A stretch of 64,000 nucleotides of DNA from Mycobacteriales bacterium (GCA_035690485.1 DASSKL010000008.1:62586-126585), one strand, 5' to 3'; counted from the stretch's first letter, positions 4,372 through 64,000 are shown. The notes: generated by a model from the sequence alone, not told the origin. Numbers and translations are program-made.

Positions 4372-4455
4372 GTGGCTTCTTTCCGGTGGGGGTTGCCGGT
4401 CGGATTGGAGCGGGGTCCGGAGGCCTGGTCGCCCCAGGCCTCCGGACCCTGACCG

Positions 4456-6162: not shown

Positions 6163-6437
6163 GGGTGCAACCACGTTCCACTCCACTTCTGCTGCGGGGG
6201 CTGTGACGCGCATCACAGGCGCGGTTGGCAAGCACGTTAGGACATGGGAGGGCGTTCAGAACGGCATTCGGCTCAAGAAACTCGGCAACGATTTGGTGTC
6301 GGCGCATCCGGGCCACACCCCGGGCACGGAACGGCGAGCGGGCGCGTTCGATCGCACCGCCCGCCGGCGGCTGCCAACGGGAGGAAATGGCCGGACATGT
6401 CATAGCCTTCGGCGTACGCCGTGACGGCGTCCGGCCG

Positions 6438-8150: not shown

Positions 8151-8253
8151 GTGTCTCCTCGATCTCCATGGAGGCAGTTCCGGATGCCGCACCGTAGCCA
8201 ATGTCACCGGTCACGAACGCGATCGGATTCACGTTTTTTGGGCAACGTTTCGG

Positions 8254-10636: not shown

Positions 10637-10669
10637 CGGCCGATCGCCGCCCGCGCGCCGGCGCGCCGC

Positions 10670-11236
10670 TCAGGGCCGGCCTGGGGCGTCCCAGACGGGA
10701 AACCAACGAGACAGATCGTCCTCGATCTTCAAGTCGTCGGCGACCGCCGCGCGGACCTCGAGCTCGACGGTGTTGTCGCGCTTCTGCTCGCCGCTCGGCG
10801 CGAACGGGTACCACGCGCCCCGCTTGTAGAGGTAGACCAGCCCGAGCGGCTGGTGGCCGTCGGTGAACCACACCACCGTGCACAGCAGCAGCGAGCCGAA
10901 GCCGGCGTCGGCCAGCGTCGAGTTGACCGCGTGCAGGTCGGCGACCAGGTCGCTGAGCTCGTCGGGGCCGGTACGCCGGACCAGCCAGGTGAACCCGTAG
11001 GAGTCGGTCTGCTGGGAGAACTTGCCGCCGTCGAGTGCGAGCAGCTGCTGCACCTGGTCGCCGAGGCCCTGGAACGCACCCCCCTCGGCCTTCTTGAACG
11101 CGACGGTCCCGGCGCCCGTCGGGCGGAACGACGTCGAGGCCGACAGCGTCACCGCTGCCGACGGGAGGCCGAACAGCTGGTCGAGGTCGGGCGGGACCGG
11201 CTTCGAGCGACCGAGGAGGGCGTCCAGAAGCCCCAT
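10670..11236 (-). CDS. Conserved hypothetical protein (188 aa), last gene of the pspA-htpX operon
   Basis: Contiguous in-frame ORF directly downstream of htpX. The stop/start overlap at 11236 suggests co-translation. No recognisable catalytic motif. Confidence 0.55.
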   Translation of the reverse strand: MGLLDALLGRSKPVPPDLDQLFGLPSAAVTLSASTSFRPTGAGTVAFKKAEGGAFQGLGDQVQQLLALDGGKFSQQTDSYGFTWLVRRTGPDELSDLVADLHAVNSTLADAGFGSLLLCTVVWFTDGHQPLGLVYLYKRGAWYPFAPSGEQKRDNTVELEVRAAVADDLKIEDDLSRWFPVWDAPGRP

Positions 11237-28414: not shown

Positions 28415-30640
28415 TCAGAGCGACAGCTCGAACCAGACCGTCTTCGCCAGGTCCGTCGACTCGACGCCCCAGCGACGGGCCAGGTGCTCGATCAGGTGCA
28501 GGCCGCGCCCGCCCTCCGCCGCAGCGTTGGGTCGCCCGCGCCGCAGCGGTGCGTGCGGAGCCTGGTCGACCACCTCGACGCGGACGCCGTCGGTCGCGAG
28601 GCGCAGTGTGCGCAGGCGCAGCGACGTCCCCGCATGCCGCACCGCGTTGGTGACCACCTCGCTCACGAGCAGCGTCGCGGTCTCGACGAGCTCGTCGAGA
28701 CCCCATGACGCCAGCACGTGCTCGACGGCGGAGCGCGCCTGCGCCGGTGACTGGATGTCCGCGGGCAGCTCCTGCACGAGCTCGCTGATGGGCTGACCCT
28801 CGCCCGCGGGCAGGGTCCACAGCGCGAGCAGGGCGACGTCGTCGTCGGATGCGGGCTGCACCGCGAGCGCCGCCTCGCAGGCCGCCTCCGCCCCGCGCAC
28901 TCCGTCGACCGCGCGAGCCAGCCGGCGCATGCCCTCGTCGACAGGTAGGTCGGGACTCTCGACGAGCCCGTCGGTGTAGAGGAGCAGCAGCGAGCCGAGC
29001 GGGAGGGTGACGACGCGTTCGCCGTACGAACCGAGGCCGACGCCGAGCGGGGGACCTGGTTCGAGCGGCAGGAAGGCCGCCGGGTCGCCGTGCGACACCA
29101 GCAGCGGCGGCGGATGGCCGGCGCAGGCGAGCAGCGCGCGGTCGGTGGTCGGGTCCCACTCGACGTAGCAGCAGGTGACGATCAGCGCGTCGTCGAGGGA
29201 GGCCACGAGCCGGTCGAGGCGACCCAGGATGCCCGCGGGGCTGTGCCCTTCCAGGACGTAGCCACGGATGGCCGCCAGGACCTGCCCCATGACCGCGGCG
29301 GCACGGACCCCGCGGCCCATGACGTCGCCGACGACGAGCCCCACACACCCCGAGGGCAACGGCACGACGTCGTAGAAGTCGCCGCCCACCGACATGCCGC
29401 GGGTCCCGGGCAGGTAGCGCACGGCCACCTCGGCGCCGGCCACGGCCGGCAGGTCGACCGGCAGCAGCGACCGTTGCAGGGTGTGCGCGATCTCGCTCTG
29501 CTGATGGAAGAGCCGCGCGTTGTCGAGTGCCAGCGCGAGCCGGCCGGCGAGCTCCCTCATCTCGGCCAGGTCATCGGCACCGAGGGGCGGGCGCTGACCG
29601 ATCGTCGCCATGGTGAGCACGCCGAGTCCGCGCCCGTGCGCCCGCAACGGCAGGACCAGCCCCGACCCCAGGTCGATCTCGTGCAGGAGCGCGAGCTGCG
29701 CCGCCTCGTCGACCAGGTCGCGGTAGTCGTCATCGCCCCGCTGGAACAACCGCGGCAGCCCGCTGTCCATCGTCGAGCGGATGAGGTCGCCACCGCGCCC
29801 GTCGAGGGTCCGGGCGAATCCGTTCAGGGCGTGGCCGATGAGCGGGTCGGCATGGTCGCCGCCGGCGATCTGCCACGTGTCGTCGGGGCCGGCGAGCACG
29901 ACGATCGCCACGTCGGCCAGGCGGTCGGTCGCCAGCCGGCACAGCTCCTCGCACAGCGGCCGGGCCTCGGTCACCCCTGCGAACAGCCGCCCCGACTCGG
30001 CGAGCAGCTCCAGCCGGTCGCGAGAGCGCCGCTCGACCGAGATCATGCGAGCGCGGTGCAGCGCGACGGAGCACTGGGCGATGACGGTGTCGAAGAACGA
30101 GAGGTTGGCCGGGTCGGTCAGGAGCCCGCCGTCGGCGAAGCTGGCCGACAGCACGCCGAGGACCTCACCGCCCTGGACGAGGGGTTCGCAGACGTACGCC
30201 GCGCCGACACTCGCCCCGCCCAGCAGTCCGGGGTAGCGCTCGTCGCGCTCCGCGACGGACAGCAGGGTGACGCGCTGCGCGTGCAATGCGGACTCGGCAG
30301 CGGGCGCGCGCGCGTCGAGCGGCATGTCGGTGAGGCAGGCGATGACGTCAGCGGGGTAGCCGACGTGGCCCTGCAGGGCCAGCATGCCCCGCTCGCGATC
30401 GAGCATCCAGACCGCGCCGGCCACCGCGCCGAGCAGCGACAGTCCGCTCTCCACCATGGTGCGCACGACGGCTTCGACGGCGAGGGCGCCGAGCAGGTCG
30501 GCGCTGACGGCCTGGAGCCGGCGCAGCCGTTGCGCCACCTGCTCCGTCGAGGCGTGCGCGAGCTGCTCCTCGTCGAACACGCCGAAATCCTTCGGACGAA
30601 GCGGCTCCCCCTGCGGAGGCACCGGCGGCGACACGCTCAT
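28415..30640 (-). CDS. Multidomain regulator with N-terminal GAF-like region(s), a PP2C/SpoIIE phosphatase domain and a C-terminal HATPase_c (anti-sigma/RsbW-like) domain
   Basis: 741 aa. PP2C motifs (GGDFYDV..., VGDVMGRGV..., LLLYTDGLVE). The C-terminal ATPase pattern VSEVVTNAVRHAG... GRGLHLIEHLARRWG is like GHKL anti-sigma kinases. Confidence 0.8.
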   Translation of the reverse strand: MSVSPPVPPQGEPLRPKDFGVFDEEQLAHASTEQVAQRLRRLQAVSADLLGALAVEAVVRTMVESGLSLLGAVAGAVWMLDRERGMLALQGHVGYPADVIACLTDMPLDARAPAAESALHAQRVTLLSVAERDERYPGLLGGASVGAAYVCEPLVQGGEVLGVLSASFADGGLLTDPANLSFFDTVIAQCSVALHRARMISVERRSRDRLELLAESGRLFAGVTEARPLCEELCRLATDRLADVAIVVLAGPDDTWQIAGGDHADPLIGHALNGFARTLDGRGGDLIRSTMDSGLPRLFQRGDDDYRDLVDEAAQLALLHEIDLGSGLVLPLRAHGRGLGVLTMATIGQRPPLGADDLAEMRELAGRLALALDNARLFHQQSEIAHTLQRSLLPVDLPAVAGAEVAVRYLPGTRGMSVGGDFYDVVPLPSGCVGLVVGDVMGRGVRAAAVMGQVLAAIRGYVLEGHSPAGILGRLDRLVASLDDALIVTCCYVEWDPTTDRALLACAGHPPPLLVSHGDPAAFLPLEPGPPLGVGLGSYGERVVTLPLGSLLLLYTDGLVESPDLPVDEGMRRLARAVDGVRGAEAACEAALAVQPASDDDVALLALWTLPAGEGQPISELVQELPADIQSPAQARSAVEHVLASWGLDELVETATLLVSEVVTNAVRHAGTSLRLRTLRLATDGVRVEVVDQAPHAPLRRGRPNAAAEGGRGLHLIEHLARRWGVESTDLAKTVWFELSL

Positions 30641-30740
30641 CGCCGGTGGCCGGCTCGACGCCGGGCGGTGGTGCCCGTCACCATGCGACGGTAGCGCCGT
30701 CGGGTGGACAATCGCTGACGGCTACCCCGACTTCCGCTGC

Positions 30741-32353: not shown

Positions 32354-35300
32354 GTGCCCCGGATTCTCCCGGTTGCGGTTGCCGCGGACGCGGCTGGCGT
32401 GGATCCTCAGCACATGGGGGGACCGACGGGCCGGGCGCAGCACGCTGCCCGGCTACGTCCGTACGTGGCCAGCCTTGTGCTGACCTGGCTCCGCGACTCG
32501 CCCCAGGCAACGTGGCGTGAGGTCGACGGCACGCTGGTCTTCGTCGACATCTCGGGCTTCACCAAGCTGACCGAGCGGCTGGCCGAGCGCGGCAAGGGCG
32601 GCGCCGAGGAGATGAGCGACATCCTCGACGCCACGTTCGGCGAGCTGCTTTGGGTCGCCTACTCCTACGGCGCGCAGCTGGTGAAGTGGGGCGGCGACGC
32701 GGTCCTGCTGCTGTTCACCGGAGACGGGCACGCGCCGCGGGCCTGCCGCGCGGCGTACGACATGCGGGCGACGATGCGCCGCATCGGCCACCTGCGCACG
32801 TCGGCCGGTGCCGTGACCCTGCGCATGAGCGTCGGCATCCACAGCGGCACGTTCCACTTCTTCCTGGTCGGCACGCTGCACCGCGAGCTGCTCGTCACAG
32901 GACCGGGCGCGACCACCACGGCCCGCATCGAGGGCGTCGCGGAAGCCGGCGAGATCGGCCTGTCCCCGCAGACGGCCGCCCTGCTGGCGCCGAACCTCGT
33001 CGGCGTGGAGAAGACGCCTGGCGTGTGGCTGCTGCGCGGCCGGCCACGGGTGCCGGAGACTCCGCGCCGGACGACGCTCGACCTGGCCGGCATCGACGTC
33101 GCGAGCTGCCTGACTGCACCGACCCGCGAGCACCTGCTGGCAGGTGGCACCGACGGTGAGCACCGGCAGATCGCGGTCGCGTTCGTGGAGTTCAAGGAGA
33201 CCGACGCCTTGCTGGCCGCCCAGGGTCCGGGCGCGCTGGCCGCCGCCCTGCACGAGGTCGTCTCGGTGACGCAGGACGCCTGCGCGCGTCACGGGGTGAC
33301 GTTCTGGGAGACCGACATCAGTCCCGACGGCGGCAAGATCATGCTCGTGGGCGGAGCCCCGCGCAGCACCGACGACGACGCCGGCGCGATGCTGGCGACC
33401 GCGCGCGACGTGGCCGACGGCGTGCGAACGCTGCCTTTACGCATCGGGGTCAACCACGGCCGGGTGTTCTCCGGCGACTTCGGCCCCGACTACCGGCGTA
33501 CCTACTCGGTCAAGGGCGATGCGGTCAACCTCGCCGCCCGCGTCATGGGCAAGGCAGCGCCCGGCGAGGTCTGGGCGACGGAGGGGGTCCTGGAGCACTC
33601 GCGCCTGTCGTTCGATGCCGAGAGGCTCGAGCCCTTCCTGGTCAAGGGCAAGGCCAGGCCGGTGCAGGCCTACCGGCTCGGCCGGGTGATGCAGGGACGG
33701 GTCGGGACCCCCGACGACGACCTGCCACTCATCAGTCGCGAACGCGAGCTCGCCGTCCTCCACGACGCGACGGCTGCCGCAGCCGCCGGCCGCGGCTGTC
33801 TGGTCGAGCTGGTCGGGGAACCGGGCATCGGCAAGAGCCGCCTCCTGGCCGAGCTCGCCTGCCGGTCACCCGACCTGCGGACCGTCGACGTCGGCTGCGA
33901 CGCCTACCACTCTTCGACGCCGTACGCACCGTTCCGCACGTTGCTGCGCGAACTACTGGACATCCCGTACGACGCCGAGCCGGGAACGGCGGGAGAGCTG
34001 CTCGCGACGCGGCTGCACGACACGGCACCGGACCTGCTCCAGTGGCTGCCCCTGGTCGCGGTCGTCGTCGACGCCGACGTCGCGCCCACGGCGGCGACCA
34101 GCGCGTTGGACGAGAAGTTCCGCAAGGGCCGGCTGGAGCAGGTGACCACCGAGCTGCTGCACCGGCTGCTTCCGAGCGCAACCCTCGTCGTGGTGGAGGA
34201 CGCCCATCTCGCCGACGACGCGTCCGCCGACCTCCTCGCCCACGTCGCCGAGAGCATCGCAAGCCGCCCCTGGGCCATGGTGGTCAGCCGGCACACCTCC
34301 CCCGGCGGTTTCGCGCCGCAGGCGCCGTCCGCCCGTATCGACCTGCTGCCGCTCGACGACTTCGCCGCGCAGACCATGCTCGCGATCGCCGCCGAGGAGT
34401 CGCCGCTCCCGCCGCACGAGTTCGCGGCACTCGCCCAGCGCGCCGAGGGCAACCCGCTGTTCCTGTTGCAACTGCTCGACGCCGTGCGTCGCACCGGCAG
34501 CGTGGACGAGCTGCCCGACTCCATCGAAGGCGTCATCACGGCGCGCATCGACCGGCTGCCCCCGCGGGAACGGCGCCTGCTCCGGACCGCGGCGGTGCTC
34601 GGCGTCCGGTTCGAACCGCGTGTCCTCGACGCGGTGCTCGACGCCGACGGCGACCGGCTCGAGGCCGAACGGCTGGCCGACTTCCTGCAGCTCGGCGACG
34701 ACGGGATGGTGGCCTTCCGCCATGCCCTGGTGCGCGACACGGCCTACGAGGGGTTGCCGTTCACCCGTCGGCGCGAGCTGCACGGTCGGGCCGGCGACGT
34801 GCTCGAGCGGCTGTACGGCGAGCGCACCGACGAACGCGCGGACCTGCTGTCGCTGCACTTCCTGCAGGCAGGTCGTTTCGAAAGGGCATGGCGCTATGCC
34901 CGCGTGGCCGGGCAACGCGCCGACGGCGCTTACGCCTACGTGGAGTCGGCCGTCTTCTACGAGCGCGCGCTCGCCGCCGCCCGGCGCAGCGCAGACGCCG
35001 ACACGGCGGCCATCGCGGACGTCACCGAACGCCTGGGCGACGCGCGCTCGCGGCTCGGCGAGTTCGCCCGGGCCGATGCGGCCTACGCCGACGCGGCGCG
35101 GGCGCTGCGTTCGCAGCCCCTGGACCGAGCCCGCATCTTCTACAAGCAGGCGGACATCTGCGTACGGGAGGGAGCGCACAGCCCGGCCCTGCGGCGGCTC
35201 AGCCGGGGGCTCACGGTCCTGTCCGACCAGCCGGGAATCGAGGCCCGGCGGCTGCGGGCCCGGCTCAGCTCCTTCTACGGACTCGTCCGGCACAACCAGG

Positions 35301-36271
35301 GGCGCGACCGCGACGCCGCCCGGTGGGGCCGCCGCGCCGTGGTCGAAGCAGAGACCTCGCGTTCGCCGGCGACCCTGGCGGAGGCGTTGCTGCATCTCGA
35401 CGTCTGCCTGACCTTCGCCGACGACGGGGGCGGCAAGAACGCGCGGCGGGCGCTGGGCCTCTGGCGCCGGCTCGGCGACTCCTGGCAGGAGGCCCGCACG
35501 CTGAACCAGCTGGGCATCCGCGCCTACTTCGGGGGGCGCTGGCCCGAGGCGCTCGCGCACTACCGCGACGCGGCGGCAGCCTTCGACCGAGCCGGCGACC
35601 AGTGGATGGCCTCCGTGGTGCGAGGCAACCTCGCCGAGACGCTGTCGGACCAGGGCCATGTCGAAGAGGCGATCGGCATCCTCGAGCTGACACTGCCGGC
35701 CTGGCGCGCGTCGAGCGCGCCCACCATGGTGGGCTTCGGCCTCAGCCTGCTCGCGCGCGCGCACGTGCGGGCCGGCCGGTTCGAGGAAGCGGCACCGCTG
35801 TACGCCGAGGCGCGCGCGTTGTTCACCGAGCACGGCGAGCCGGTCGAGGTGCTGGAAACCGATGCGCGCCGCGTCGAGTCGTCCGTGCTGCAGGGACGCG
35901 GCGTCGCGGTGTTGGGCGACGTCGCGGAGCTGCTCGAGCGATGCCATCGGCTGCCCGGCGGTGAGGGTCTGGCCGCCACGGCCCACCGCCTGCACGGGCT
36001 GGCGCTCGCCCAGCTGGGCGACCTACTCGAAGCCCGCGCGGCGCTGCAGCGCAGCATCGCCTCCGCCCAGCAGCGGGGCGCCACCCACGAGATCGTCTGG
36101 GCCCTCGACGCCCTCGATCAGCTGGCCGGCGCCAGTCAGCAGCTGCCGATCCCGAGCCAGTCGACCGAGCTGCGGTCGCTCATGGACGGTCTGGGCATGG
36201 TGCAGATCGCCCGCCCTGGCCCGACCGGTCACGCCATCGACGTGACCCGCGACGCAACCATCGCCCGGTAG
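32354..36271 (+). CDS. Tandem class III nucleotidyl cyclase (CHD x2) / AAA+ STAND ATPase / TPR-repeat protein
   Basis: CHD1 has VFVDISGFT, KWGGDAVLLLF and GIHSG. CHD2 has VAFVEFKETD, RIGVNHGRVFSGDFG and VKGDAVNLAARV. The P-loop is GEPGIGKSRLL. C-terminal TPR-like helical repeats. 1305 aa. The start is either GTG 32354 or ATG 32414. Confidence 0.8.
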   Translation: MPRILPVAVAADAAGVDPQHMGGPTGRAQHAARLRPYVASLVLTWLRDSPQATWREVDGTLVFVDISGFTKLTERLAERGKGGAEEMSDILDATFGELLWVAYSYGAQLVKWGGDAVLLLFTGDGHAPRACRAAYDMRATMRRIGHLRTSAGAVTLRMSVGIHSGTFHFFLVGTLHRELLVTGPGATTTARIEGVAEAGEIGLSPQTAALLAPNLVGVEKTPGVWLLRGRPRVPETPRRTTLDLAGIDVASCLTAPTREHLLAGGTDGEHRQIAVAFVEFKETDALLAAQGPGALAAALHEVVSVTQDACARHGVTFWETDISPDGGKIMLVGGAPRSTDDDAGAMLATARDVADGVRTLPLRIGVNHGRVFSGDFGPDYRRTYSVKGDAVNLAARVMGKAAPGEVWATEGVLEHSRLSFDAERLEPFLVKGKARPVQAYRLGRVMQGRVGTPDDDLPLISRERELAVLHDATAAAAAGRGCLVELVGEPGIGKSRLLAELACRSPDLRTVDVGCDAYHSSTPYAPFRTLLRELLDIPYDAEPGTAGELLATRLHDTAPDLLQWLPLVAVVVDADVAPTAATSALDEKFRKGRLEQVTTELLHRLLPSATLVVVEDAHLADDASADLLAHVAESIASRPWAMVVSRHTSPGGFAPQAPSARIDLLPLDDFAAQTMLAIAAEESPLPPHEFAALAQRAEGNPLFLLQLLDAVRRTGSVDELPDSIEGVITARIDRLPPRERRLLRTAAVLGVRFEPRVLDAVLDADGDRLEAERLADFLQLGDDGMVAFRHALVRDTAYEGLPFTRRRELHGRAGDVLERLYGERTDERADLLSLHFLQAGRFERAWRYARVAGQRADGAYAYVESAVFYERALAAARRSADADTAAIADVTERLGDARSRLGEFARADAAYADAARALRSQPLDRARIFYKQADICVREGAHSPALRRLSRGLTVLSDQPGIEARRLRARLSSFYGLVRHNQGRDRDAARWGRRAVVEAETSRSPATLAEALLHLDVCLTFADDGGGKNARRALGLWRRLGDSWQEARTLNQLGIRAYFGGRWPEALAHYRDAAAAFDRAGDQWMASVVRGNLAETLSDQGHVEEAIGILELTLPAWRASSAPTMVGFGLSLLARAHVRAGRFEEAAPLYAEARALFTEHGEPVEVLETDARRVESSVLQGRGVAVLGDVAELLERCHRLPGGEGLAATAHRLHGLALAQLGDLLEARAALQRSIASAQQRGATHEIVWALDALDQLAGASQQLPIPSQSTELRSLMDGLGMVQIARPGPTGHAIDVTRDATIAR

Positions 36272-36274
36272 GAC

Positions 36275-37288
36275 TCAGAAGAACTTCGGGTCCTGAGGGT
36301 TGCCGGGAACCTGGACGATCGCGTGCTGGGCGGCCTTCACCTTGAACAGGTCGCTGATGCATGGCTGGTCGCTAACCCCGGCGGCAGCGAGCGCGCTGCA
36401 CAGTGGGAGCGGCCCCTGCGTTGGACTGGTCTCCGACTGGGGCGGCAGGAGCGTGCCGTCGCTGCCTTCGGTGTAAAACCCGTAGGGCGCCGACATGCAG
36501 ACTTCCCAATGGGGCGTGCCGTTGTCCGTATAGGCGTTCGTCGTCTGCTTGTCCCAGGCCAGCTCCACCGACTTGCTCCCGGTCGTCGAGTCGGAGCTGA
36601 GCATCTGGTCGACGACGACGTACTCCGGTCGCGTTTCCGACACGCAGGCCTCGCTGTTCGGCGCGACGTTCATGAATAGTGAGCCGACCCTGGTGTCGAA
36701 CGCCACGGTGCCAGACGTGTGCACCCCGCTGTCCGTGCAAGGGCTGGCGGTGCACACGATGCCGGCCACGGTCAGCTGCGGAGCCGACCCGCTCAACAGG
36801 AAGTCGTTGCCCGACCCGGAGAAGTCGTTGGACTGCTTGACCGCCGAGCCGATCGTGTAGGTGCCGTCGGTGGTCGGGGTGAACGACACCGGAATGACGA
36901 CGGAGCCCGAGTCCGGCACGCCCGAGCTGCTGGACGACGAACGCAGCTGCACGACGAACTGCGAAGCGCTGCTGGTCACCGTCGCGGAGAAGTCGGCACA
37001 TGCGGGCACGCTCGGGCAGATGAGGGCGCCCACGTTAGGAGTCCCGCTGTAGGGCAGCGCGAACGTGATGTTGGCAGATGCGAAGTACTGGTTGGCGGTG
37101 ATGTTGCTCAACGTGACCTGCACCGTGGTTTGCGCGCCGGCCGGCACGTTGGTCGGCGAGATGCTCGCGGTGTAGAACTTCTTGGCCGCTTGCGCGGATG
37201 CAGGAGCACCGACGAGGGTCGCTGCCACCAGGGCGGCGACTCCGACGACCACGGCTGTGCCGAGGTGCCTCCGACGACGTGCTCTCAT
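36275..37288 (-). CDS. Secreted protein (signal peptide) with Cys-containing C-terminal domain ending in QDPKFF
   Basis: N-terminus MRARRRRHLGTAVVVGVAALVAATLVGAPASAQA. Ser/Thr-rich beta-sandwich-like middle. C-terminal domain shared with 37446..38765 (W.VCM.APY.F ... PC.S ... VPG..QDPKFF). Confidence 0.65.
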   Translation of the reverse strand: MRARRRRHLGTAVVVGVAALVAATLVGAPASAQAAKKFYTASISPTNVPAGAQTTVQVTLSNITANQYFASANITFALPYSGTPNVGALICPSVPACADFSATVTSSASQFVVQLRSSSSSSGVPDSGSVVIPVSFTPTTDGTYTIGSAVKQSNDFSGSGNDFLLSGSAPQLTVAGIVCTASPCTDSGVHTSGTVAFDTRVGSLFMNVAPNSEACVSETRPEYVVVDQMLSSDSTTGSKSVELAWDKQTTNAYTDNGTPHWEVCMSAPYGFYTEGSDGTLLPPQSETSPTQGPLPLCSALAAAGVSDQPCISDLFKVKAAQHAIVQVPGNPQDPKFF

Positions 37289-37445
37289 AGCCGCCCCCCT
37301 CCGATCGGCGGGTCACCGCCGCACGGCACGCATGCTGGACCGTTGGCCAGGCCGCGACAAGAGCACGGCCGGACCAGTCTCGTCAGACGGGATCGCCCGC
37401 GCAGCCACGAAATACCGCCTACCGGTCGGAACGTCGAGACCCACG

Positions 37446-38765
37446 TCAGAAGAACTTCGGGTCCTGGGCGCTGCCCGGCACGAGCACCTCGGCGAACTGC
37501 TGGCCCGAACCCGTCTTCCGCAGGATCGACACGCAGGGCCCCGGCGCCGCGGCCGGCAGCGCCGCGCAGCCAGGCAGCAGACCGACGTACGACGTGCCGG
37601 CGTGGGTTGCCGGCACCAGGGCGCCCTGCCCGTCGGCGGCCTGGAAGGCGTACGGCGCCTGCATGCACACGGGCCACTGCGACGCGCCGTTGTTGGTCTC
37701 CTGCTGGGTGAACTCCTTGGTCCACGTGAGGTCCACCGTCTTTGCGGAGTCGGACATCACCGTGACCTCGACGCCGCTCGGACGCGCCAGACCGGCGCAG
37801 GGTGCGGCACTGTCGACCAGCCCCAGCGAGATCGTCGAGGGGGTGTCGGCCGACGCGCTCACGGTCGACATCGGCTGACCGGTGAGCGTCAACGTGCAGG
37901 GCGACTGGTCGGGCGGGCAGGTCTTCTGCGCGAGGGGCGCGGTGACGACCGCCGGTTGGGAGACGAACCGGTTCGGCAGCCAGCCCTGCTCCACCCCGAG
38001 CTCGATCAGCCGGGAGAGGAAGCCCGCCATCTCGTCGCGCTGCACGCCCTGGTCCTGGTTCGACAGCGTGCCGCCGGCCAAGCCCGGCGCGCCGACGAAG
38101 AGCCCCAGACCCGCGACGGCGTTGAGGTAGGGGTTCTCGAAGACCCCGCCGTCGTCGTCGGCGAAGTAGTCCTGACCGGACGCTGCGGGCGTCGCGCCCG
38201 AGAAGACCTTCAGCGCGTTGTAGATGAACTTCGACATCTCTCCACGGGAGACGATCGCGTCGGGTGCGTAGCTCCCGTCCGCATAGCCGCTGACCATCCC
38301 CGCGTTGGTGAGCGCGTCGACCGCGCTCCGGAACTGCTGCGGGATGCCGGCCGCGTCGGTGTAGCTCGTCGCGGGTGCGGCCGTCGACCAGGCATGACCG
38401 GCCGCGGTGCCCAACCGGTAGAAGAATGCCGCCATCTGGTCACGCAGCACCGGCGCCGTCGGGGCGTAGGTCGTCGCCGAGGTGCCGTCGGTGACGCCGT
38501 AATCGGCGGCACAGTAGATCTGCAGCCGGAAGAAGTCTCTGTCGACGTCCGTGAAGCCCGGGTTGGTCAGCGAGGCAGGGGGGCAGGCTGTGCCGGTGTC
38601 GATGGGAGCGGGCGGCAGGGCCGTCTGGTTGCCGGGAAAGCTGCCCGAAGCCCACGCCGAGCTGATCGGGCTGACCCCCAGGGCGACGACCAGGGTGCCC
38701 GCAAGGACCCCCGCGGCCGCGGCCGGCAGCACGCCACGCGCGCTCGACCTCCGAACGAGCTTCAT
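37446..38765 (-). CDS. Secreted protein with three SLH (S-layer homology) repeats and the shared C-terminal QDPKFF domain
   Basis: Start MKLVRRSSARGVLPAAAAGVLAGTLVVALGVSPISSAWA, preceded by GGGGGGA. Three ~50-aa repeats fit SLH (FTDVDRDFFRLQIYCAADYGVTDG...PVLRDQMAAFFYRL, YTDAAGIPQQFRSAVDALTNAGMVSGYADGSYAPDAIVSRGEMSKFIYNAL, and a third ending QRDEMAGFLSRLIEL). Confidence 0.7.
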   Translation of the reverse strand: MKLVRRSSARGVLPAAAAGVLAGTLVVALGVSPISSAWASGSFPGNQTALPPAPIDTGTACPPASLTNPGFTDVDRDFFRLQIYCAADYGVTDGTSATTYAPTAPVLRDQMAAFFYRLGTAAGHAWSTAAPATSYTDAAGIPQQFRSAVDALTNAGMVSGYADGSYAPDAIVSRGEMSKFIYNALKVFSGATPAASGQDYFADDDGGVFENPYLNAVAGLGLFVGAPGLAGGTLSNQDQGVQRDEMAGFLSRLIELGVEQGWLPNRFVSQPAVVTAPLAQKTCPPDQSPCTLTLTGQPMSTVSASADTPSTISLGLVDSAAPCAGLARPSGVEVTVMSDSAKTVDLTWTKEFTQQETNNGASQWPVCMQAPYAFQAADGQGALVPATHAGTSYVGLLPGCAALPAAAPGPCVSILRKTGSGQQFAEVLVPGSAQDPKFF

Positions 38766-38928
38766 GCAAGTCCCCCCTACCGGGGAGCGTGGGCCGCACC
38801 CCAGAGGCATCCTCAGGTCTCGGTGATCACCGCACAACCGAAACGCAGAAGACGCCGCCTCAGACCGGGGCAATCGACCGCACCGCCGGACGAGTCAGGC
38901 GCACCGGGCGATCCCGCCCGGCAAAGTC

Positions 38929-40671
38929 CTAACCCGCGCTGGACTCGGGGAACACCTGCTCGGCTACCGCGGCCTGCTCGGGCACCGCGACGGAGGGACG
39001 GTAGGTGGGGTGCGTGCGCTCGAGCTGTCGGCGTACACCGCTGACGGTCGCGGGCGAGAGCGGCGCCTCGTTGAGCGCATTGAGGAACTCGTCGCCGGCG
39101 ATGCGCAGCAGCCGGCAGCCGTCGCCTGCCCGCACGGTCGCGGTCCGGGGGATGCGTTCCAGCAGGCCGATCTCGCCGAAGTACGCCGGCGCCTCGAGCA
39201 TCCGCAGGAACTGCTCGCTGACCCCCTCGCCGCGAGCCGACACCTGGACCGACCCGTCGAGCAGGACGTACAGGTCGTCGGCGGCCTCCCCCTCGGTGAC
39301 GATCGGGAGGCCGGGCTCCACCAGCATGTCGCTCCCGGTGCGGGCCAACCGCTCCAACACCGGACGGGAGGCCGAGGCAAAGATGCCGAGCCGTTGGAGC
39401 ACCGCGATCCGCGGTTCCAGGGTCTGCAGCAGGTGCACCGCCTCGCGGTCCATGCCGGCGAGCATCGGGTAGCAGCCGACGACGAGCAGCGGCAGCGCGG
39501 CGCCGTAGACGAGCAACGTGCCGTTGGTGCCCAGACCGTGCAGCAGCGCCGGGGTGATCAGGGCACCGATGGAGATCCCGCCGAGCACGAGGGCCCAGAA
39601 GGCGCCGAACACCCGGGCGATCAGGTCGGGTGCCAACGTGCGCTGCAGCGCGGTGATGGCGAGGGTGTCGACGACGAGCGTGCCACCGCCCCGGATGACC
39701 TGCAGCACGAACGCGATCTCCGGCGAGTGCACCGTGGCCATCACGGCGGTGGGCACGCAGTACACCGCCATCCCGCCGACGATCATCAGCGCCAGCCGCG
39801 GCGAGGCGGCCAGCCGGTTGACCAGCCCGGCGGCGAGGACACCGCCGACGCCGAGCGCGGCCAGCAGGTAGCCGTAGCCGTCCTCGCCAGTTCCGAGCCT
39901 GGTCTTGCTCAGCACGGCGAACAGCACCGTGTCCGTGCCGTAGAAGAAGCTGGCCAGCACGCTGAACCACACGAGGATCGCGGTGCGGCGGGAGGCGACG
40001 ATTGCCCGGTAGCCCACGCGGATCTGCTGCAGCGGCCCGCCGTCCTGGGTCACGTCCGTGGGCACGCTGCGGACGCCGGCACGGCTGACCAGCGCTGCGG
40101 AGACCACGAACGTGCCCGCGTTGAAGGCGATGACGCCGGCCGGGCTCACCGCCGCGAGCATCGCCCCGCCCAGCGCAGGGCCGACGAGGATCGTCAGGTT
40201 GTCGATCGTGCCCTTGAGACCGTTGGCCGCCGCCAGGTCCTTCTCGCCGACGACCTGTGGGATCAGCGCGGACGTCGCGGGGTCGTACGCCGACATCAGG
40301 ATCGAGTTGAGCGCGCCGATCGCGATGACGACGGCCGAGTGCGCGTGCAGGGCCATGGCGGTCGCCATCGCCGCCATCAACCCCGTCGCCGTCAGGTCGC
40401 AGGTGACCAGCACCCGCACCCGTTCGAAGCGCTCGGCGACGACGCCGGCGTAGGAGCTGAAGAGCAGGGCGCTGAGGAACCTGCCGAGGGTGGCCGCGGC
40501 CACCCACGCCGGGGAGTGCGTCTGCTGGTAGACGTAGACCACGAGCGCGACGTTGTAGGCCCAGCTGCCGGTTGCGGAGACGGCGAGGGCGCCGCTGAGC
40601 AGGCGGAAGTCCCGATGCCGCAGTGCACCGCGGTAGGTCCCCCGAGCCTGCCCGGCTACATCCGCGGTCAT
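38929..40671 (-). CDS. MFS transporter fused to a C-terminal cyclic-nucleotide-binding (CAP-family) domain
   Basis: About 12 TM in the first ~430 aa. The C-terminal ~130 aa carry the cNMP motifs FGEIGLL and RTATVRA. ATGA overlap with the upstream MBL gene at 40668..40671. Confidence 0.8.
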   Translation of the reverse strand: MTADVAGQARGTYRGALRHRDFRLLSGALAVSATGSWAYNVALVVYVYQQTHSPAWVAAATLGRFLSALLFSSYAGVVAERFERVRVLVTCDLTATGLMAAMATAMALHAHSAVVIAIGALNSILMSAYDPATSALIPQVVGEKDLAAANGLKGTIDNLTILVGPALGGAMLAAVSPAGVIAFNAGTFVVSAALVSRAGVRSVPTDVTQDGGPLQQIRVGYRAIVASRRTAILVWFSVLASFFYGTDTVLFAVLSKTRLGTGEDGYGYLLAALGVGGVLAAGLVNRLAASPRLALMIVGGMAVYCVPTAVMATVHSPEIAFVLQVIRGGGTLVVDTLAITALQRTLAPDLIARVFGAFWALVLGGISIGALITPALLHGLGTNGTLLVYGAALPLLVVGCYPMLAGMDREAVHLLQTLEPRIAVLQRLGIFASASRPVLERLARTGSDMLVEPGLPIVTEGEAADDLYVLLDGSVQVSARGEGVSEQFLRMLEAPAYFGEIGLLERIPRTATVRAGDGCRLLRIAGDEFLNALNEAPLSPATVSGVRRQLERTHPTYRPSVAVPEQAAVAEQVFPESSAG

Positions 40672-41558
40672 AGCGCAGCCACCTCTCCGATAGCGGGTGC
40701 GACCGGGGCGGCGCTCGGGGCCGCGGGAAGGTCGAACACCCGACCCTGCCGGCCGGCCTCGACCGGCACGGCGGCCCCGCGCTGCCCGGCGACGATGTCG
40801 TCTATCTGGTCGTCGGTGCGGGTCGGGTCGTGGTGGAACAGCACCAGCCGGCCGACGCCGGCCGACTCGGCCAGGCGGACGGCGTACTCCACGGTCGAGT
40901 GGCCGAGGAAGGCCAGCCGCGGGAACTCCGCCGCGACGTGCTGCGCGTCGTGGACGAGCACGTCGGCGCCGTCGGCCAGCTCCAGCGCGGCGTCGTGCAG
41001 GACCCCGTCACCCTGCTCCCCTGGCGACCAGGCGCTGGGCCCGTGGTCGGTGACGTAGGCAAGGGTCGACCTGCCGTCGGTGATCCGGTAGCCGATCGTG
41101 CGGCCGCCCTTGTGCGGGATCTCCCGCACCAGCACGTCGAAGCCCTCGACGCAGAGGCGCCCCGGCTCGATCCAGTCGAAGGTCCACCCGTCGCCGAGCT
41201 GCTCGGGCGTGATCGGGAAGTACGGCGGCCGCATGATGCCCGACAGCACCTCGACCGGGTCGCCGGGCTGTGCGGGCCCGCGCACGTCGACACGGGCGCC
41301 CGGCAGGAAGCCCGCACCGAAGAACGGCAGGCCCTGCCAGTGGTCCCAGTGCAGGTGGGTCAGCAGGATCGTGCCGGCGAACGGCTGCCCGCCGAGCAGC
41401 GCGGGCACCTCGCGCAGGCCGGTGCCGGCGTCGAGCAGCAGCGTCGGCGCTGCACCGTCGGCCGCCACGGCCACGCAGGAGGTGTGACCTCCGTAGCGGT
41501 CGTAGGCCGGGCCGGGCGCGGGCGTCGAGCCGCGGACACCGCACAGCCGCACCCGCAT
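40668..41558 (-). CDS. MBL-fold metallo-hydrolase
   Basis: HxHxDH motif LLTHLHWDHWQG and further His/Asp positions (HDAQH, HHD). 296 aa. Confidence 0.8.
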   Translation of the reverse strand: MRVRLCGVRGSTPAPGPAYDRYGGHTSCVAVAADGAAPTLLLDAGTGLREVPALLGGQPFAGTILLTHLHWDHWQGLPFFGAGFLPGARVDVRGPAQPGDPVEVLSGIMRPPYFPITPEQLGDGWTFDWIEPGRLCVEGFDVLVREIPHKGGRTIGYRITDGRSTLAYVTDHGPSAWSPGEQGDGVLHDAALELADGADVLVHDAQHVAAEFPRLAFLGHSTVEYAVRLAESAGVGRLVLFHHDPTRTDDQIDDIVAGQRGAAVPVEAGRQGRVFDLPAAPSAAPVAPAIGEVAAL

Positions 41559-49141: not shown

Positions 49142-49349
49142 GCGGTGCCTCCGGGGCGTCGGAACGATGGGCTGCTGGCCACCGCCATCCTTGCGCAGGC
49201 CTGGGGTGCGCCAAGCGGCCGGTCGGCGTACGCTCGGAGCGCACGTGATGCCGGATTTGTCCGCCATCGTCCCCGAAGGCAGGAACTCCGCGCTCGCCGC
49301 CGAACAACGTGCGTAAACACCCAGCGAGATCTGAGACGGGAGGGGCGCC

Positions 49350-50357
49350 ATGTGGCCGCGGCACCGGTCGGCACGACCGCAGCAGCATGACGCCCCCGAG
49401 TCCCCGGCGGTCAGCGAGCCGCTCGCGATCGACGACGAGCGCGTCGCCGAGCTGCTCGACGACCTGGCCCAGCTGCGGCTGTTCGTGGCGACCGACCTGT
49501 CGGTCGCGGCCGGCGCGGCAGACGCCGGCGCCTACGAGATCGCCGCCGACGTCATCGACGCCGGCCGGGAAGAGCTCTCGACGTTCGAGGCCCGGATCCT
49601 GGCCCGCATGCACGCCGAGCGGCTCGTCGGCGCGGTCGCGCTCCCCGAGACCGCGGTGCCCGAGCAACCGAGATCCCGGTCGCGCCGGCTGACGCGGCTG
49701 CTGCTGGTCAGCCCGGCCCTGCCCGCCGTGCCGGTGCTCGCAGCGACTGCCGCCGCGGCCGCCGTCGCACTCGGTGCGATCCACGTCCCGGGCACCGGTC
49801 CGGACACCTCCTCCCCCGCGGCTGGGGCGCGCGTCCATGCGGCGACGGCGAGCTGGGACTACTTCCACCAGATCGCCACCGGCGACGCCAGCGCATCCGC
49901 CGTGATCGCCGCCGGGCAGCGGCTCCACGCCTCGCTGGTGTCGTTGATCGACGCGTCGGGCGACGACCCTGCCAAGGCCCAGCAAGCCCTCGAGCTGCTC
50001 GCCAAGGAGCGCGACCTGCTGCTGAGCGATCTTCCGCCCGGCGGTCAGGTCGTCCTGGCGCAGGCCGACAACCTGGTCCTGCAGCTTCGGCAGCGCCTGC
50101 CGCGCCTGCCGCAGGTGATCGCCCTGCCGTCGAGCAGCCCCAAGCCCAGCGACACCCACATGCGCAGTACGACGACCCAGCGCACCGACACCCGGCCGGC
50201 ACCCGCGCCCACCGGGGCGCAGCCGGCGGCGACCACGTCACCGGCCGCGTCGCCCAGCCCGTCGGCGAGCCCCTCCCCGAGCGCGTCGCCGAAGCCGACG
50301 CCCGACACGTCGCCGAACTGGGGACCGCTCCCCCCACCATCTAACTTCGGCAACTGA
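49350..50357 (+). CDS. Hypothetical single-pass membrane protein with acidic N-terminal region and Pro/Ser-rich C-terminal tail
   Basis: Good RBS (GGGAGGGG, 5 nt from the ATG). One TM (LLLVSPALPAVPVLAATAAAAAVALGAI). C-terminal SPSPSASPSPSASP repeats. Confidence 0.5.
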   Translation: MWPRHRSARPQQHDAPESPAVSEPLAIDDERVAELLDDLAQLRLFVATDLSVAAGAADAGAYEIAADVIDAGREELSTFEARILARMHAERLVGAVALPETAVPEQPRSRSRRLTRLLLVSPALPAVPVLAATAAAAAVALGAIHVPGTGPDTSSPAAGARVHAATASWDYFHQIATGDASASAVIAAGQRLHASLVSLIDASGDDPAKAQQALELLAKERDLLLSDLPPGGQVVLAQADNLVLQLRQRLPRLPQVIALPSSSPKPSDTHMRSTTTQRTDTRPAPAPTGAQPAATTSPAASPSPSASPSPSASPKPTPDTSPNWGPLPPPSNFGN

Positions 50358-61695: not shown

Positions 61696-62889
61696 TCAGG
61701 CGACCGAGCCAGGTCCGTTGGGGTTGGACACCTTCTCCGCAGCCCGCACCGCGTCGGCGTCGTTCACGCCGCCGAGCGGGCCGTCGGGGATCGGCACCAT
61801 CCAGACGTGCGTCATCGGCGGCGTCACCTGCGACGACAGGCCGCGCGGGCAACGTCCCTGCGCGTCCTGCAACGCCACGACGTCGACGCCTGACAGACAG
61901 AGGTTGGTGTGCACGTGCCACTGCACCAGGCAGCCACCGGTCGCCGGCGGTTGGTTCGCTCCCGGTCCCATCATGTACATGACCGCCACGAGCACGGCAC
62001 CCTTGGGCGTGTTGGCATAGACGAGGCTGGCCGGTGCGTCGGGGGTCAGCGGGTCGCCGGTGCGCATGTTGGCGACGAAGTTGGCCAGCTTCATGTAGTG
62101 CACGACGGGCAGGCCGCTCGGCGTGATGGGCACGAAGCCGTCCGCCTTCGCGGTGGCGAGACTGGCGTACTTGCTGTCCGCCGCCACCGTCTGGTCTACC
62201 AACGTGCGGGCCTGCTCCTGCTGCTGCCGCGAGGGCACCTCCTGGCACATGGAGGTGACCATCTTCATGCCCTCGTCCATCTCCATCGAGATGGGCAGCC
62301 TGATGTCGCCGGCGGCCGAGGTCGTCGGCACTCGCAGGTGGAGCGTGGCCGAAGCCGTATCGGCGGCGCCCATGTCCATGCCGCCGTGGTGGGACTCCGA
62401 GGGGGCCAGGGCGAGCGCGGCGCTGGTGGAGGCCATGACCGCGAAGACCGCGAGCGTCGCGATCTGCACCCGCAGCACAGCGGCCAGCGGACGGCGCCAC
62501 CGGAAGCGCAGCAGGCCCAACGCGCCGGCGGCACACAGCACCTCGAGGGCTGTGGTCAGGGTGTCGAGCCAGCCGACCGGTTCAGCGGTCGAGGCGTCGG
62601 GACCGACGGGGACGCCATGTGCCCGGCTGAGCACCCAGACGGCCACGATCCCCAGCTGCAGTACGACGCCGCCGGCAAGCACCCAGCGGCGCGGTTGCAC
62701 GACCAGCGCGACCGCCCACGAGACCTGCAACCACGCGCAAACCAGGAAGAAGACGCCGAACAGCCAGTACTCGTGGAAGTGCTCACCGGTCACTGAGAAG
62801 TGAGCCGCCGCGGCGGCGACCGATGCCGCGGCCAGCACGACCCGCACGACCCAGCGCAGCGTCCCGCTGTCGGACTCGCCCATGCACAC
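61696..62889 (-). CDS. Integral membrane protein with Met/His-rich extracytoplasmic segment and Cys pairs
   Basis: Four N-terminal TM helices, then HHGGMDMGAADTAS...MEMDEGMKMVTSMCQE and CLVQWHVHTNLC. Confidence 0.55.
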   Translation of the reverse strand: MCMGESDSGTLRWVVRVVLAAASVAAAAAHFSVTGEHFHEYWLFGVFFLVCAWLQVSWAVALVVQPRRWVLAGGVVLQLGIVAVWVLSRAHGVPVGPDASTAEPVGWLDTLTTALEVLCAAGALGLLRFRWRRPLAAVLRVQIATLAVFAVMASTSAALALAPSESHHGGMDMGAADTASATLHLRVPTTSAAGDIRLPISMEMDEGMKMVTSMCQEVPSRQQQEQARTLVDQTVAADSKYASLATAKADGFVPITPSGLPVVHYMKLANFVANMRTGDPLTPDAPASLVYANTPKGAVLVAVMYMMGPGANQPPATGGCLVQWHVHTNLCLSGVDVVALQDAQGRCPRGLSSQVTPPMTHVWMVPIPDGPLGGVNDADAVRAAEKVSNPNGPGSVA

Positions 62890-63001
62890 CTCCGATGCGC
62901 TGGACCCTAACCCCGGTCGCTCCCCCCTGACAGCCGCTGACCGTAATGCCGGGGACCCGACGATTTGATCGGTGTTACAGGGTTTTCGGGGCGGCCGGGG
63001 C

Positions 63002-64000
63002 TCACGCCGAGCGCTGCAGCCCCGAGCCGTTGGACGTCGGCAGGCCGGCCGCGGCCAGGGCCTCCTCGACCAGCTGCCCCACCGCCTCGAACTCGAGCAG
63101 GAACCCGTCGTGACCGTAGGGCGAGTGCACGACCTCGAGGCCCGGGCAGGTTGCGATCCCGGCGGCGATCTCCTGCTGCAGGTAGAGCGGGTAGAGCCGG
63201 TCGCTGTCGATGCCGGCGACGAACGTCGGCGCCTTGACCCGGGACAGCGCCGCCTCCACGCCGCCGCGGTCCCGACCGACGTCGTGGGAGTTCATCGCGT
63301 TGCTGAGCACGACGTAGGTGTTGGCGTCGAAGCGGCGCGCCAGCTTGTCGGCGTGATGATCGAGGTAGGACTCGACCGAGAACCGGCCGCCACCGAACGG
63401 ATCCTCCTGCGCCTGCGGCACGCGACCGAACCGCTCGGCGAGCTCCGACTCCGAGCGGTAGGAGATGTGCGCGATCCGCCGGGCGATGCCGAGGCCGAGG
63501 TGCGGCCCCTCACCGGGTGGCGCGTCGTAGTAGTCGCCACCCCGGAAGCGCGGATCGGCCCGCACCGCCTGGATCTGGGCGGCGCAGAGCGCGATCTGCT
63601 CGGCCGTCGCGTAAGCCCCGCATGCGAGCACGACGGCCGACCGCAGCCGGTCGGGATAGGTGACGGCCCACTCGAGCGACCGCATGCCGCCCATCGAACC
63701 GCCCACGACCGTGGCCCAGCTGCCGACGCCGAGAGCGTCAGCGAGACCCGCCTCGACCGCGACCTGGTCTCGCACGGTGACGAAGGGGAAGCGACTCCCC
63801 CAGGGGCGGCCGTCCGGTGCCGGCGACGCCGGCCCCGTCGTGCCCTGGCAACCGCCGAGGACGTTCGGGGCCACGACCCACCACCGGTCGGTGTCGATGG
63901 CCTTGCCGGGACCGACGAGGCTGTCCCACCAGCCGGCGGTCGGGTGGCCGGGACCGGCCGGACCGGTCACGTGGCTGTCACCGGTCAGCGCGTGCGCCAC
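63002..64000 (-). CDS. metX: Homoserine O-acetyltransferase MetX. The 5' end lies beyond the window.
   Basis: Alpha/beta-hydrolase with GGSMGGM nucleophile elbow and the MetX-specific regions (VVLSNAMNSHD..., DSDRLYP). The ORF runs to the window edge. Confidence 0.85.
   Translation of the reverse strand: MAHALTGDSHVTGPAGPGHPTAGWWDSLVGPGKAIDTDRWWVVAPNVLGGCQGTTGPASPAPDGRPWGSRFPFVTVRDQVAVEAGLADALGVGSWATVVGGSMGGMRSLEWAVTYPDRLRSAVVLACGAYATAEQIALCAAQIQAVRADPRFRGGDYYDAPPGEGPHLGLGIARRIAHISYRSESELAERFGRVPQAQEDPFGGGRFSVESYLDHHADKLARRFDANTYVVLSNAMNSHDVGRDRGGVEAALSRVKAPTFVAGIDSDRLYPLYLQQEIAAGIATCPGLEVVHSPYGHDGFLLEFEAVGQLVEEALAAAGLPTSNGSGLQRSA

Follow-up and report, generated by a model that had tools for sequence, protein, structure and literature searches.

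A six-cysteine C-terminal module shared by two putatively exported proteins, and its linkage to a soluble adenylyl cyclase-like gene in an uncultured actinomycete lineage

According to our analysis, two adjacent genes, A and B, on the minus strand of a 64,000-nucleotide stretch of DNA from a "Mycobacteriales bacterium" (GCA_035690485.1, DASSKL010000008.1:62586-126585; hereafter the window, in whose coordinates features are given) encode putatively exported proteins that share a C-terminal module of about 160 residues with six invariant cysteines. The module defines a sizeable family, and, judging by gene order, the family gene appears to belong to a conserved cassette with a gene for a cyclase-STAND-TPR protein resembling soluble adenylyl cyclase (sAC), which is often joined by a cyclic nucleotide monophosphate (cNMP)-binding domain and a metallo-beta-lactamase (MBL)-fold hydrolase. 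In the open reading frame (ORF) list, gene A (36275-37288, minus; 337 aa) is the canonical family member, with a signal peptide, an N-terminal domain (N-domain) and the C-terminal module (C-module). Gene B (37446-38765, minus; 439 aa) is a lineage-specific fusion in which the signal peptide is followed by three S-layer homology (SLH)-type repeats, a linker and the C-module. Gene A lies 157 nt downstream of gene B on the same strand, and identical boundaries were called for both genes in six independent metagenome assemblies. A purine-rich Shine-Dalgarno-like stretch is found 6-8 nt before both start codons, namely GGAGGGGGG upstream of the gene A ATG and AGGGGGGA upstream of the start of gene B.

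The C-terminal module and its family

The C-termini of A and B are 40% identical over 124 aa (BLASTP, E=4e-16) and both end in QDPKFF, a likeness far beyond chance. Alignment with relatives showed that the shared module begins about 35 residues before the BLASTP-aligned stretch. The original prediction of a collinear C-terminal region of about 130 aa was therefore right about the shared part, but the true unit is longer, about 160 aa, and the four conserved cysteines reported at that time have become six. The module corresponds to aa 177-337 in A (36278-36760, minus; Cys 179, 184, 215, 264, 297 and 310) and to aa ~281-439 in B (37449-37925, minus; Cys 283, 290, 323, 367, 400 and 411). Each of the six cysteines is kept in 150-151 of 151 family sequences, and they probably form three disulfides. 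Near the end of the module an Asp is kept in 148 of the 151 sequences and the Pro that follows it in 142; these are Asp333-Pro334 in A (36287-36292, minus; 3 residues before the C-terminus) and Asp435-Pro436 in B (37458-37463, minus). One Lys (K350 in B) is found in 135 sequences, and beyond these residues no position of the C-module exceeds a conservation of about 85%.

When 169 family proteins were compared, Asp-Pro was present in 158, and in 156 it was located 3-7 residues from the C-terminus. The residue before it is Gly in 97 of the 158 proteins, and the residue after the Pro is Arg, Lys or His in 73 and Trp in 27; some members read GDPHFI or GDPH, and one sub-clade has D-L or D-A in place of D-P. 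The short tail that follows varies in sequence and length, with an aromatic residue visible in most tails. Thus, the identical extreme C-terminus noticed earlier is real for A and B, but family-wide only the Asp-Pro is kept. Since QDPKFF is limited to A, B and their close relatives (P0002-P0004 and P0023; family proteins are numbered P and loci L), the suggested role of a conserved terminal Phe-Phe as a sorting or interaction signal finds no support. The last 21 nt, which are the same in both genes, were also considered as a nucleotide-level element. This was rejected: all codons of the stretch have G or C at the third position, and with a G+C content at third codon positions (GC3) of ~87-90% in these genes, identical residues alone explain the identity of the DNA.

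The AlphaFold2 (AF2) model of the B C-module (mean predicted local distance difference test, pLDDT, 90.6; predicted template-modelling score, pTM, 0.86) has about 13 short strands, with the tail docked as a short strand; the model of A reached a pLDDT of 82.3. The C-module is accordingly modelled as a beta-sandwich of about 160 aa. The original prediction could not place this domain, and our searches agree with it. In Pfam, the C-module matched no known family in A, B and 20 family members, and 65 isolated modules searched at E<=10 gave only scattered noise. NCBIfam gave no match, and neither did a profile search of PDB sequences at E<=10. A Foldseek search of PDB for the fold returned nothing significant, the best matches being the carbohydrate-binding modules (CBMs) CBM11 and CBM61 with E>=0.07 and TM<0.35. 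The hidden Markov models (HMMs) for VWD, GPS and ZU5 did not match the isolated C-modules even at E<=10. The interpretation of the module as a peptidase pro-domain was rejected.

A word-indexed protein search with A recovered 22 proteins, and the exhaustive profile search with the C-module recovered 876 representatives at E<=1e-3 (411 at E<=1e-10), so that the family comprises at least 876 clusters when clustered at 50% identity; it was met only in metagenome-assembled genomes (MAGs), all of uncultured soil Actinomycetota apart from one Dormiibacterota. In all of the best 150 matches listed, the matching stretch ends within about 10 residues of the end of the protein. When GTDB species were scanned, each represented by one genome, 30 loci were obtained, all from MAGs and none from a cultured isolate; they were assigned to Frankiales, Mycobacteriales, Gaiellaceae, Solirubrobacteraceae, other Actinomycetota and, in one case, Dormiibacterota. 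No relatives were found among the viral contigs of IMG/VR. The usual architecture is a signal peptide, an N-domain of about 140 aa, often a middle region with occasional weak Ig-type Pfam matches (Big_1 in 1 of 81 members), and the C-module.

According to an HMM of the N-domain, the C-module is joined to the same N-domain in 130 of 171 proteins, and among 81 representatives scanned with Pfam, SLH repeats were present only in the cluster of B. We therefore rejected the idea that the C-module is a promiscuous or generic sorting or anchoring tag. It is one half of a dedicated two-domain protein, to which B is the exception. Because this sizeable family has no annotation in Pfam and NCBIfam, the combination of C-module and N-domain stands out as a candidate for a domain entry of its own; a literature search on the KQSNDF-type signature motif of the family found nothing relevant. 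In locus L023 (4787-7754), a second large gene, rich in Ig repeats and ending in the C-module, lies directly upstream of the canonical family gene, in a part of the assembly with frameshifts. Tandem C-module genes have thus arisen elsewhere too.

Both proteins had been predicted to carry signal peptides, and in keeping with this each has a signal-peptide-like N-terminal hydrophobic segment and an AXA site. The predicted signal peptide of A, its sole strongly hydrophobic stretch, covers aa 1-34 (37187-37288, minus; ...APASAQA↓AKK), and that of B covers aa 1-39 (38649-38765, minus; ...SSAWA↓SG). The Kyte-Doolittle hydropathy exceeds 1.6 only at residues ~7-32 of A and ~9-38 of B, and the putative cleavage sites are AQA↓A and AWA↓S, the family consensus being SAQA↓AP. 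Since in both cases a lone N-terminal hydrophobic segment is followed by an AXA site, we infer from these patterns that A and B are exported cell-envelope proteins.

The N-domain of A (aa 35-176; 36761-37186, minus) is predicted to form a beta-sandwich like those of YcnI/DUF1775 and cohesin. It contains the near-invariant loop KQSNDFSGSGNDF (aa 151-163; 36800-36838, minus), each listed position of which is shared by 87-99 of 101 sequences, in a family with an overall identity of about 30%. The GxGND(F)xL part of this loop may resemble a single RTX-type calcium-binding turn. K37, N62, Q67 and S71 of the N-domain are also near-invariant, as is the lysine K151.

SLH repeats of B and allele exchange at A

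Whole B matches the Pfam SLH family (PF00395) with 54.7 bits against a cut-off of 20.8. Repeat 2 (aa 135-185; 38211-38363, minus; GMVSG...SRGE) is clear, with 41 bits and E 1.8e-10, and it aligns to the SLH of SbsB in 4aq1. Repeat 1 (aa 71-118; 38412-38555, minus; GVTDG...LRDQ) reaches 19.1 bits over profile positions 2-44 when scanned alone, narrowly missing the cut-off. Repeat 3 (aa 200-256; 37998-38168, minus; GLFVG...QRDE) is degenerate, carries a 4-residue insertion and was read from the sequence. The features of SLH domains involved in ligand binding include Gly29 of GIIxG and Arg43 of TRAE (PMC6081394). The last Gly of the former motif and the Arg of the latter are kept in all three repeats of B, with a Gly-to-Arg spacing of 14, 14 and 18 residues. 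By HMM and by motif, B is a member of the SLH class, with repeats of unequal strength: repeat 2 is strong, repeat 1 borderline and repeat 3 degenerate. The SLH assignment of the original prediction holds for the protein as a whole and for repeat 2; of the three repeats that it named, repeat 3 is recognizable by its motifs only, and a functional SLH trimer is a possibility.

B forms a single cluster at 90% identity among 5.8 billion proteins, and the remaining matches cover its SLH part only. In the related loci L045 and L046 (~78-82% DNA identity), the gene for a major facilitator superfamily (MFS) transporter with a cNMP-binding domain is followed directly by an A-type gene, and a segment of about 1.5 kb with B is missing; the junctions without B are found at L045 369-546 and L046 217-430, compared with window 37301-38967. 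A and B, tandem paralogs in the original prediction, are not a stable pair: B occurs only in this species-level lineage. It is best explained as a recent product of this lineage, formed when a copied C-module was placed behind a set of SLH repeats, and it may serve as an example of the recent recruitment of an SLH anchor in an actinomycete.

The position of gene A is also variable. The flanks of the locus in the sister strain L042 are 93-94% identical to the window at the DNA level, and the encoded proteins are similarly close (MBL 92.9%, MFS 96.9%, B 93.6% and cyclase 93.3%). Within this setting, the interior of gene A (window ~36406-37165; L042 5283-6106) has no detectable DNA similarity between the two strains. 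The L042 allele, P0004, has 40.6% amino acid identity to A of the window overall and 28% in the N-domain, and its C-module is 59% identical to that of B and 41% identical to that of A. Because the interior of P0004 is divergent amid near-identical flanks and its module is closer to that of B, the A position carries alternative alleles, and the A-type and B modules seem to have exchanged sequence. The replacement in L042 looks like a cassette-like allelic exchange or gene conversion. The L042 locus also contains an extra gene for an EAL-domain protein (cyclic di-GMP phosphodiesterase type; 10168-11193) between the cyclase gene and glnA, which is not in the window.

The cyclase/cNMP cassette and its genomic context

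The linkage of the family gene to a cyclase/cNMP gene set was not part of the original prediction. In the window, the gene convergent with A (32354-36271, plus) encodes a cyclase-ATPase-TPR protein of 1305 aa, or of 1285 aa from the start chosen by the gene caller (32414), and the stop codons of the two genes are separated by 3 nt. Pfam recognizes two Guanylate_cyc stretches, AAA_16 and TPR in this protein. Its best match among PDB sequences is human sAC (ADCY10; E 2.7e-16), over both C1 and C2. The first cyclase domain keeps FVDISGFT and GGDA, and the second GDAVNLAAR.

An orthologue of this cyclase (39-52% identity) is convergent with the family gene in about 25 GTDB and metagenome loci with enough downstream sequence, the sample consisting of loci drawn via the KQSNDF motif together with P0004, P0007, P0010, P0012, P0016 and P0018, which were looked up directly. 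Either 0-50 nt separate the stops of the two genes, or the genes share 4-50 nt at their 3' ends. L009, L017, L019 and L036, in which no cyclase is seen, break off no more than about 0.3 kb from the family gene. The cyclase of L016 is located some 2.8 kb from the family gene and that of L048 on the opposite side of the cluster, and in L022 and the Dormiibacterota locus L027 a weaker match (29-31%; second cyclase domain and AAA_16) lies directly downstream on the same strand. A 67-aa ORF was observed just beyond the cyclase start in three Gaiellaceae-type loci (L037 15344-15547, L038 5514-5717 and L041 10045-10248); no equivalent was noticed in the window.

Upstream of B, the window contains a gene for an MFS_3 transporter with a C-terminal cNMP-binding domain (38929-40671, minus; Pfam). 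In a screen with a local cNMP HMM, such a domain was found directly upstream of the family gene in 11 loci, to which L048 and L049 can be added. It occurs either as a free 139-aa protein (Gaiellaceae type) or as the C-terminus of the MFS_3 transporter, and in L049 the stop of the MFS-cNMP gene overlaps the start of the family gene. The next gene of the window (40668-41558, minus) overlaps the MFS gene by 4 nt (40668-40671) and encodes an MBL-fold hydrolase (Lactamase_B_2), a candidate cyclic-nucleotide phosphodiesterase. Its sole full-length similarity in NCBIfam is weak (NF041851, "cyclic nucleotide-degrading phosphodiesterase"; 39 bits, where the cut-off is 400), and it recurs near the family gene in six loci (L012, L014, L031, L035, L042 and L048). 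On the basis of this recurrence and this similarity, the MBL protein may provide the cassette with its degrading enzyme.

Gene order thus places the family gene in a conserved cassette with the sAC-like cyclase-STAND-TPR protein. The near-obligate tail-to-tail pairing spans Actinomycetes to Thermoleophilia and, if our reading is true, it points to an undescribed link between cAMP and the cell surface. We know of no report of such a cyclase obligately paired with a gene for an exported protein, and a literature search on cyclase-AAA_16-TPR proteins with secreted proteins found nothing relevant. The genomic association is conserved and undescribed, and it could represent a new system.

The glutamine synthetase of the window is 100% identical to that of a metagenome-assembled "Mycobacteriales bacterium," its next relatives are 87% identical and those from cultured genera ~78%; the host, which carries the same NCBI label, therefore represents an uncultured lineage of Actinomycetes. 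The surrounding window has a G+C content of ~72%, and the cassette is found there in a core region with gcvT, pepA, lpdA, sucB, lipA, glnA, glnE, glnA2 and nadE; in this lineage it sits between glnA and glnE. Neither sigma-70-like promoters nor intrinsic terminators were found around genes A and B, and no Rfam families were found in the window. Beside the cassette, between a lipA-DUF4191-RDD block and glnA, lies a gene for a GAF-SpoIIE-HATPase_c_2 protein, a regulator of the phosphatase/anti-sigma type (28415-30721, minus). Two long ORFs with high GC3 had no Pfam match at 1e-5 (49335-50357, plus, 340 aa; 61696-63291, minus, 531 aa). A peptide-type ABC permease is encoded at 338-8210, outside the cassette and about 30 kb from it.

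Possible function and comparison with known systems

A and B would be modular wall-associated proteins, a class that is itself known. The reading that we favor, with a rough probability of 0.35, is that the C-module would be a disulfide-stabilized binding module acting at the cell wall, where its partner would most simply be another C-module or another family protein. B, held on a wall polymer through its SLH repeats, would then be an anchored receptor that retains A, and the N-domain of A would be the exposed, strain-variable working end. The production or use of the exported protein would be coupled to cAMP from the neighboring sAC-like cyclase. An action at the wall would explain why a copy of the module by itself has been given an SLH anchor, and a protein made of SLH repeats and the module has no other obvious use. 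The exchange of sequence between modules and the resemblance of the N-domain to protein-binding cohesins also speak for this reading.

Several observations weigh against it. In most genomes the family gene occurs singly and an SLH partner is missing, which means that the family in general cannot depend on anchoring through B. Any binding of A to B, or of module to module, is our proposal, and the conserved positions of the C-module (six Cys, D-P, one Lys, one Gly and one Pro) outline no obvious interface. Since the convergent genes are not co-transcribed, synteny is silent on the connection between cAMP and the exported protein. A ligand for the SLH repeats is putative, as neither csaB nor another wall-polymer gene was found in the window. 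SLH repeat 3 gave no HMM match when scanned alone. The absence of csaB from the window had been pointed out in the original prediction, and in agreement with it, scans of 30 large ORFs of the window and the Pfam annotation of the genes surrounding the locus revealed no pyruvyl-transferase domain (csaB-type, PS_pyruv_trans).

Other explanations of the module were weighed against this wall-level binding. The best Foldseek matches, CBM11 and CBM61, would fit a CBM-like sandwich that binds wall glycan or an environmental polysaccharide, and an extracellular, disulfide-rich and terminal position of the module would suit such a role; B would then carry two wall- or glycan-binding parts. Nevertheless, these matches are not significant, the invariant positions include no conserved aromatic platform, and the module occurs together with neither glycoside hydrolases nor other passenger domains, so we regard this possibility as unlikely. 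The order of domains in B recalls another class, the OmpM/SlpA-type outer-membrane tethers, in which SLH is followed by a beta-rich domain with a terminal Phe. That B is such a tether, with a C-terminal beta-barrel ending in an aromatic residue, has a next to negligible probability and was rejected: its module is modelled with high pLDDT as a 160-aa six-Cys sandwich of about 13 short strands and not as a barrel of at least 14 strands, proteins that lack SLH carry the same module, and conservation does not extend to the terminal Phe. Two readings take the cassette as their starting point. The tight and ancient linkage to a TPR-containing cytoplasmic sensor, together with lineage-specific tails (such as PKFF, PKLW, PRMY, PHASWY and PWGGLG) after an invariant potential cleavage site, might suggest that the tail is set free, taken up again and detected by the TPR of the cyclase, as in an RRNPP-like quorum circuit with cAMP output. 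A folded, disulfide-bonded carrier of 340-480 aa is implausible for a signal of 3-7 residues, and the cassette includes no maturation protease, the only peptide-type ABC permease observed being the distant one at 338-8210; such a circuit is very improbable. Equally hard to credit is a Pycsar-like anti-phage cassette, consisting of the cyclase and a cNMP-binding membrane effector, with A and B as variable surface or receptor proteins. In PADLOC, the cyclase and the cNMP domain gave PycC-type and PycTIR-type domain matches of ~30 bits, and the A allele is replaced between near-identical strains. However, these matches are generic domain similarities, an effector domain is lacking in the free 139-aa cNMP protein, relatives are missing from viral contigs, and the cassette, which in this lineage has a core chromosomal glnA-glnE context, has been passed on across classes at 39-52% identity.

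The conserved Asp-Pro beside a short variable tail (Asp in 148 and Pro in 142 of 151 sequences) raises a further possibility, in which this bond, strained by the module, would autocleave, the tail (PKFF) would leave, and the resulting aspartyl anhydride would react with a hydroxyl or amine of wall glycan or with the invariant Lys of a neighboring subunit, B being the SLH-anchored base. The outcome would be covalent attachment or polymerization that needs no sortase. Autocleavage at GDPH occurs in VWD domains and in the heavy chains of ITIH (PMC10880436), and the self-processing module of FrpC proceeds through an aspartyl anhydride to a Lys isopeptide (PMC7078468). With these precedents in mind, the frequent G-D-P-(H/K/R) of the family (Gly in 97 and a basic residue in 73 of 158; GDPHFI or GDPH in some), the near-invariant lysines (K350 of the B module; K37 and K151 of the N-domain) and GAIN/ZU5-type neighbors are points in favor. 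The position of the site is unlike that of the precedents, however: in VWD and ITIH, the site of cleavage is the turn joining beta-strands 1 and 2, on the N-terminal side of the domain (PMC10880436), and in FrpC a module of about 170 aa follows the site. The HMMs for VWD, GPS and ZU5 remained unmatched, a sub-clade has D-L or D-A, and DP near the ends of domains is not rare. The aromatic residue kept in the tail and the docking of the tail as a short strand in the AF2 model fit a plain structural cap. Self-cleavage of this kind thus seems distinctly unlikely, and its full version, a sortase-independent attachment with B as base that forms the extracellular output of an sAC-like cAMP cassette in uncultured Actinomycetota, would be, if anything, a shade less probable. 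If the Asp-Pro did self-cleave, it would provide a new mode of attachment for Gram-positive surface proteins and a compact tool for protein ligation.

Like the SLH proteins of Firmicutes (SpaA of P. alvei, Sap of B. anthracis and SbsB of G. stearothermophilus), B has a set of three N-terminal SLH-type repeats right after the signal peptide. It differs from them in its actinomycete host, in a borderline repeat 1 and an HMM-silent repeat 3, in the lack of csaB in the window, and in its passenger, which is a single 160-aa module and neither an S-layer lattice domain nor an enzyme. The Asp-Pro self-cleaving modules (VWD of FCGBP and MUC2, ITIH and FrpC) likewise have (G)-D-P-(H/K/R) in what is, for the family studied here, a modelled extracellular, disulfide-bonded beta-sandwich, whereas the site of the family is at the extreme C-terminus, and neither a sequence match nor a significant fold match was found. 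A VWD-type GDPH domain was rejected as an identity of the C-module, since the D-P lies 3-7 residues from the C-terminus and VWD had no match at E<=10; a FrpC-type module was rejected as well, as only 3-7 residues follow the Pro and neither RTX repeats nor a type I secretion system context was found.

The N-domain is similar in fold to YcnI/DUF1775 (7me6, 3esm), with a sequence identity of 6-14%, and it was not matched by the Pfam HMM of DUF1775. The copper ligand of YcnI is its N-terminal His. The predicted mature N-terminus here, in contrast, is Ala-(Pro-Ser-Thr)-Lys, with no N-terminal His, and the invariants of the N-domain are K, N, Q, S, D and G. The HMM match to cohesin was not significant (PF00963, E 0.53) and there is no dockerin; unlike in a cohesin-dockerin pair, the element common to A and B is the C-module. 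For each of the candidate identities VWD, the FrpC self-processing module, DUF1775 and cohesin, at least one defining feature is missing from the C-module or the N-domain. GAIN/ZU5 (FIIND), characterized by its fold together with an HL↓T or F↓S autoproteolysis motif, is a less clear-cut candidate, for which no GPS or ZU5 HMM match was found.

Cyclase-ATPase-TPR proteins of mycobacteria include Rv0386, Rv1358 and Rv2488c; in comparison to these, a LuxR-type helix-turn-helix was not detected in the cyclase of the window. Should the preferred reading be true, the cassette would offer a concrete handle on the cyclase-ATPase-TPR proteins of actinobacteria, which have long been unexplained. The closest relative of the neighboring cyclase with a solved structure is human sAC (ADCY10): the protein aligns to both of its catalytic domains and continues, beyond them, into AAA_16 and TPR.

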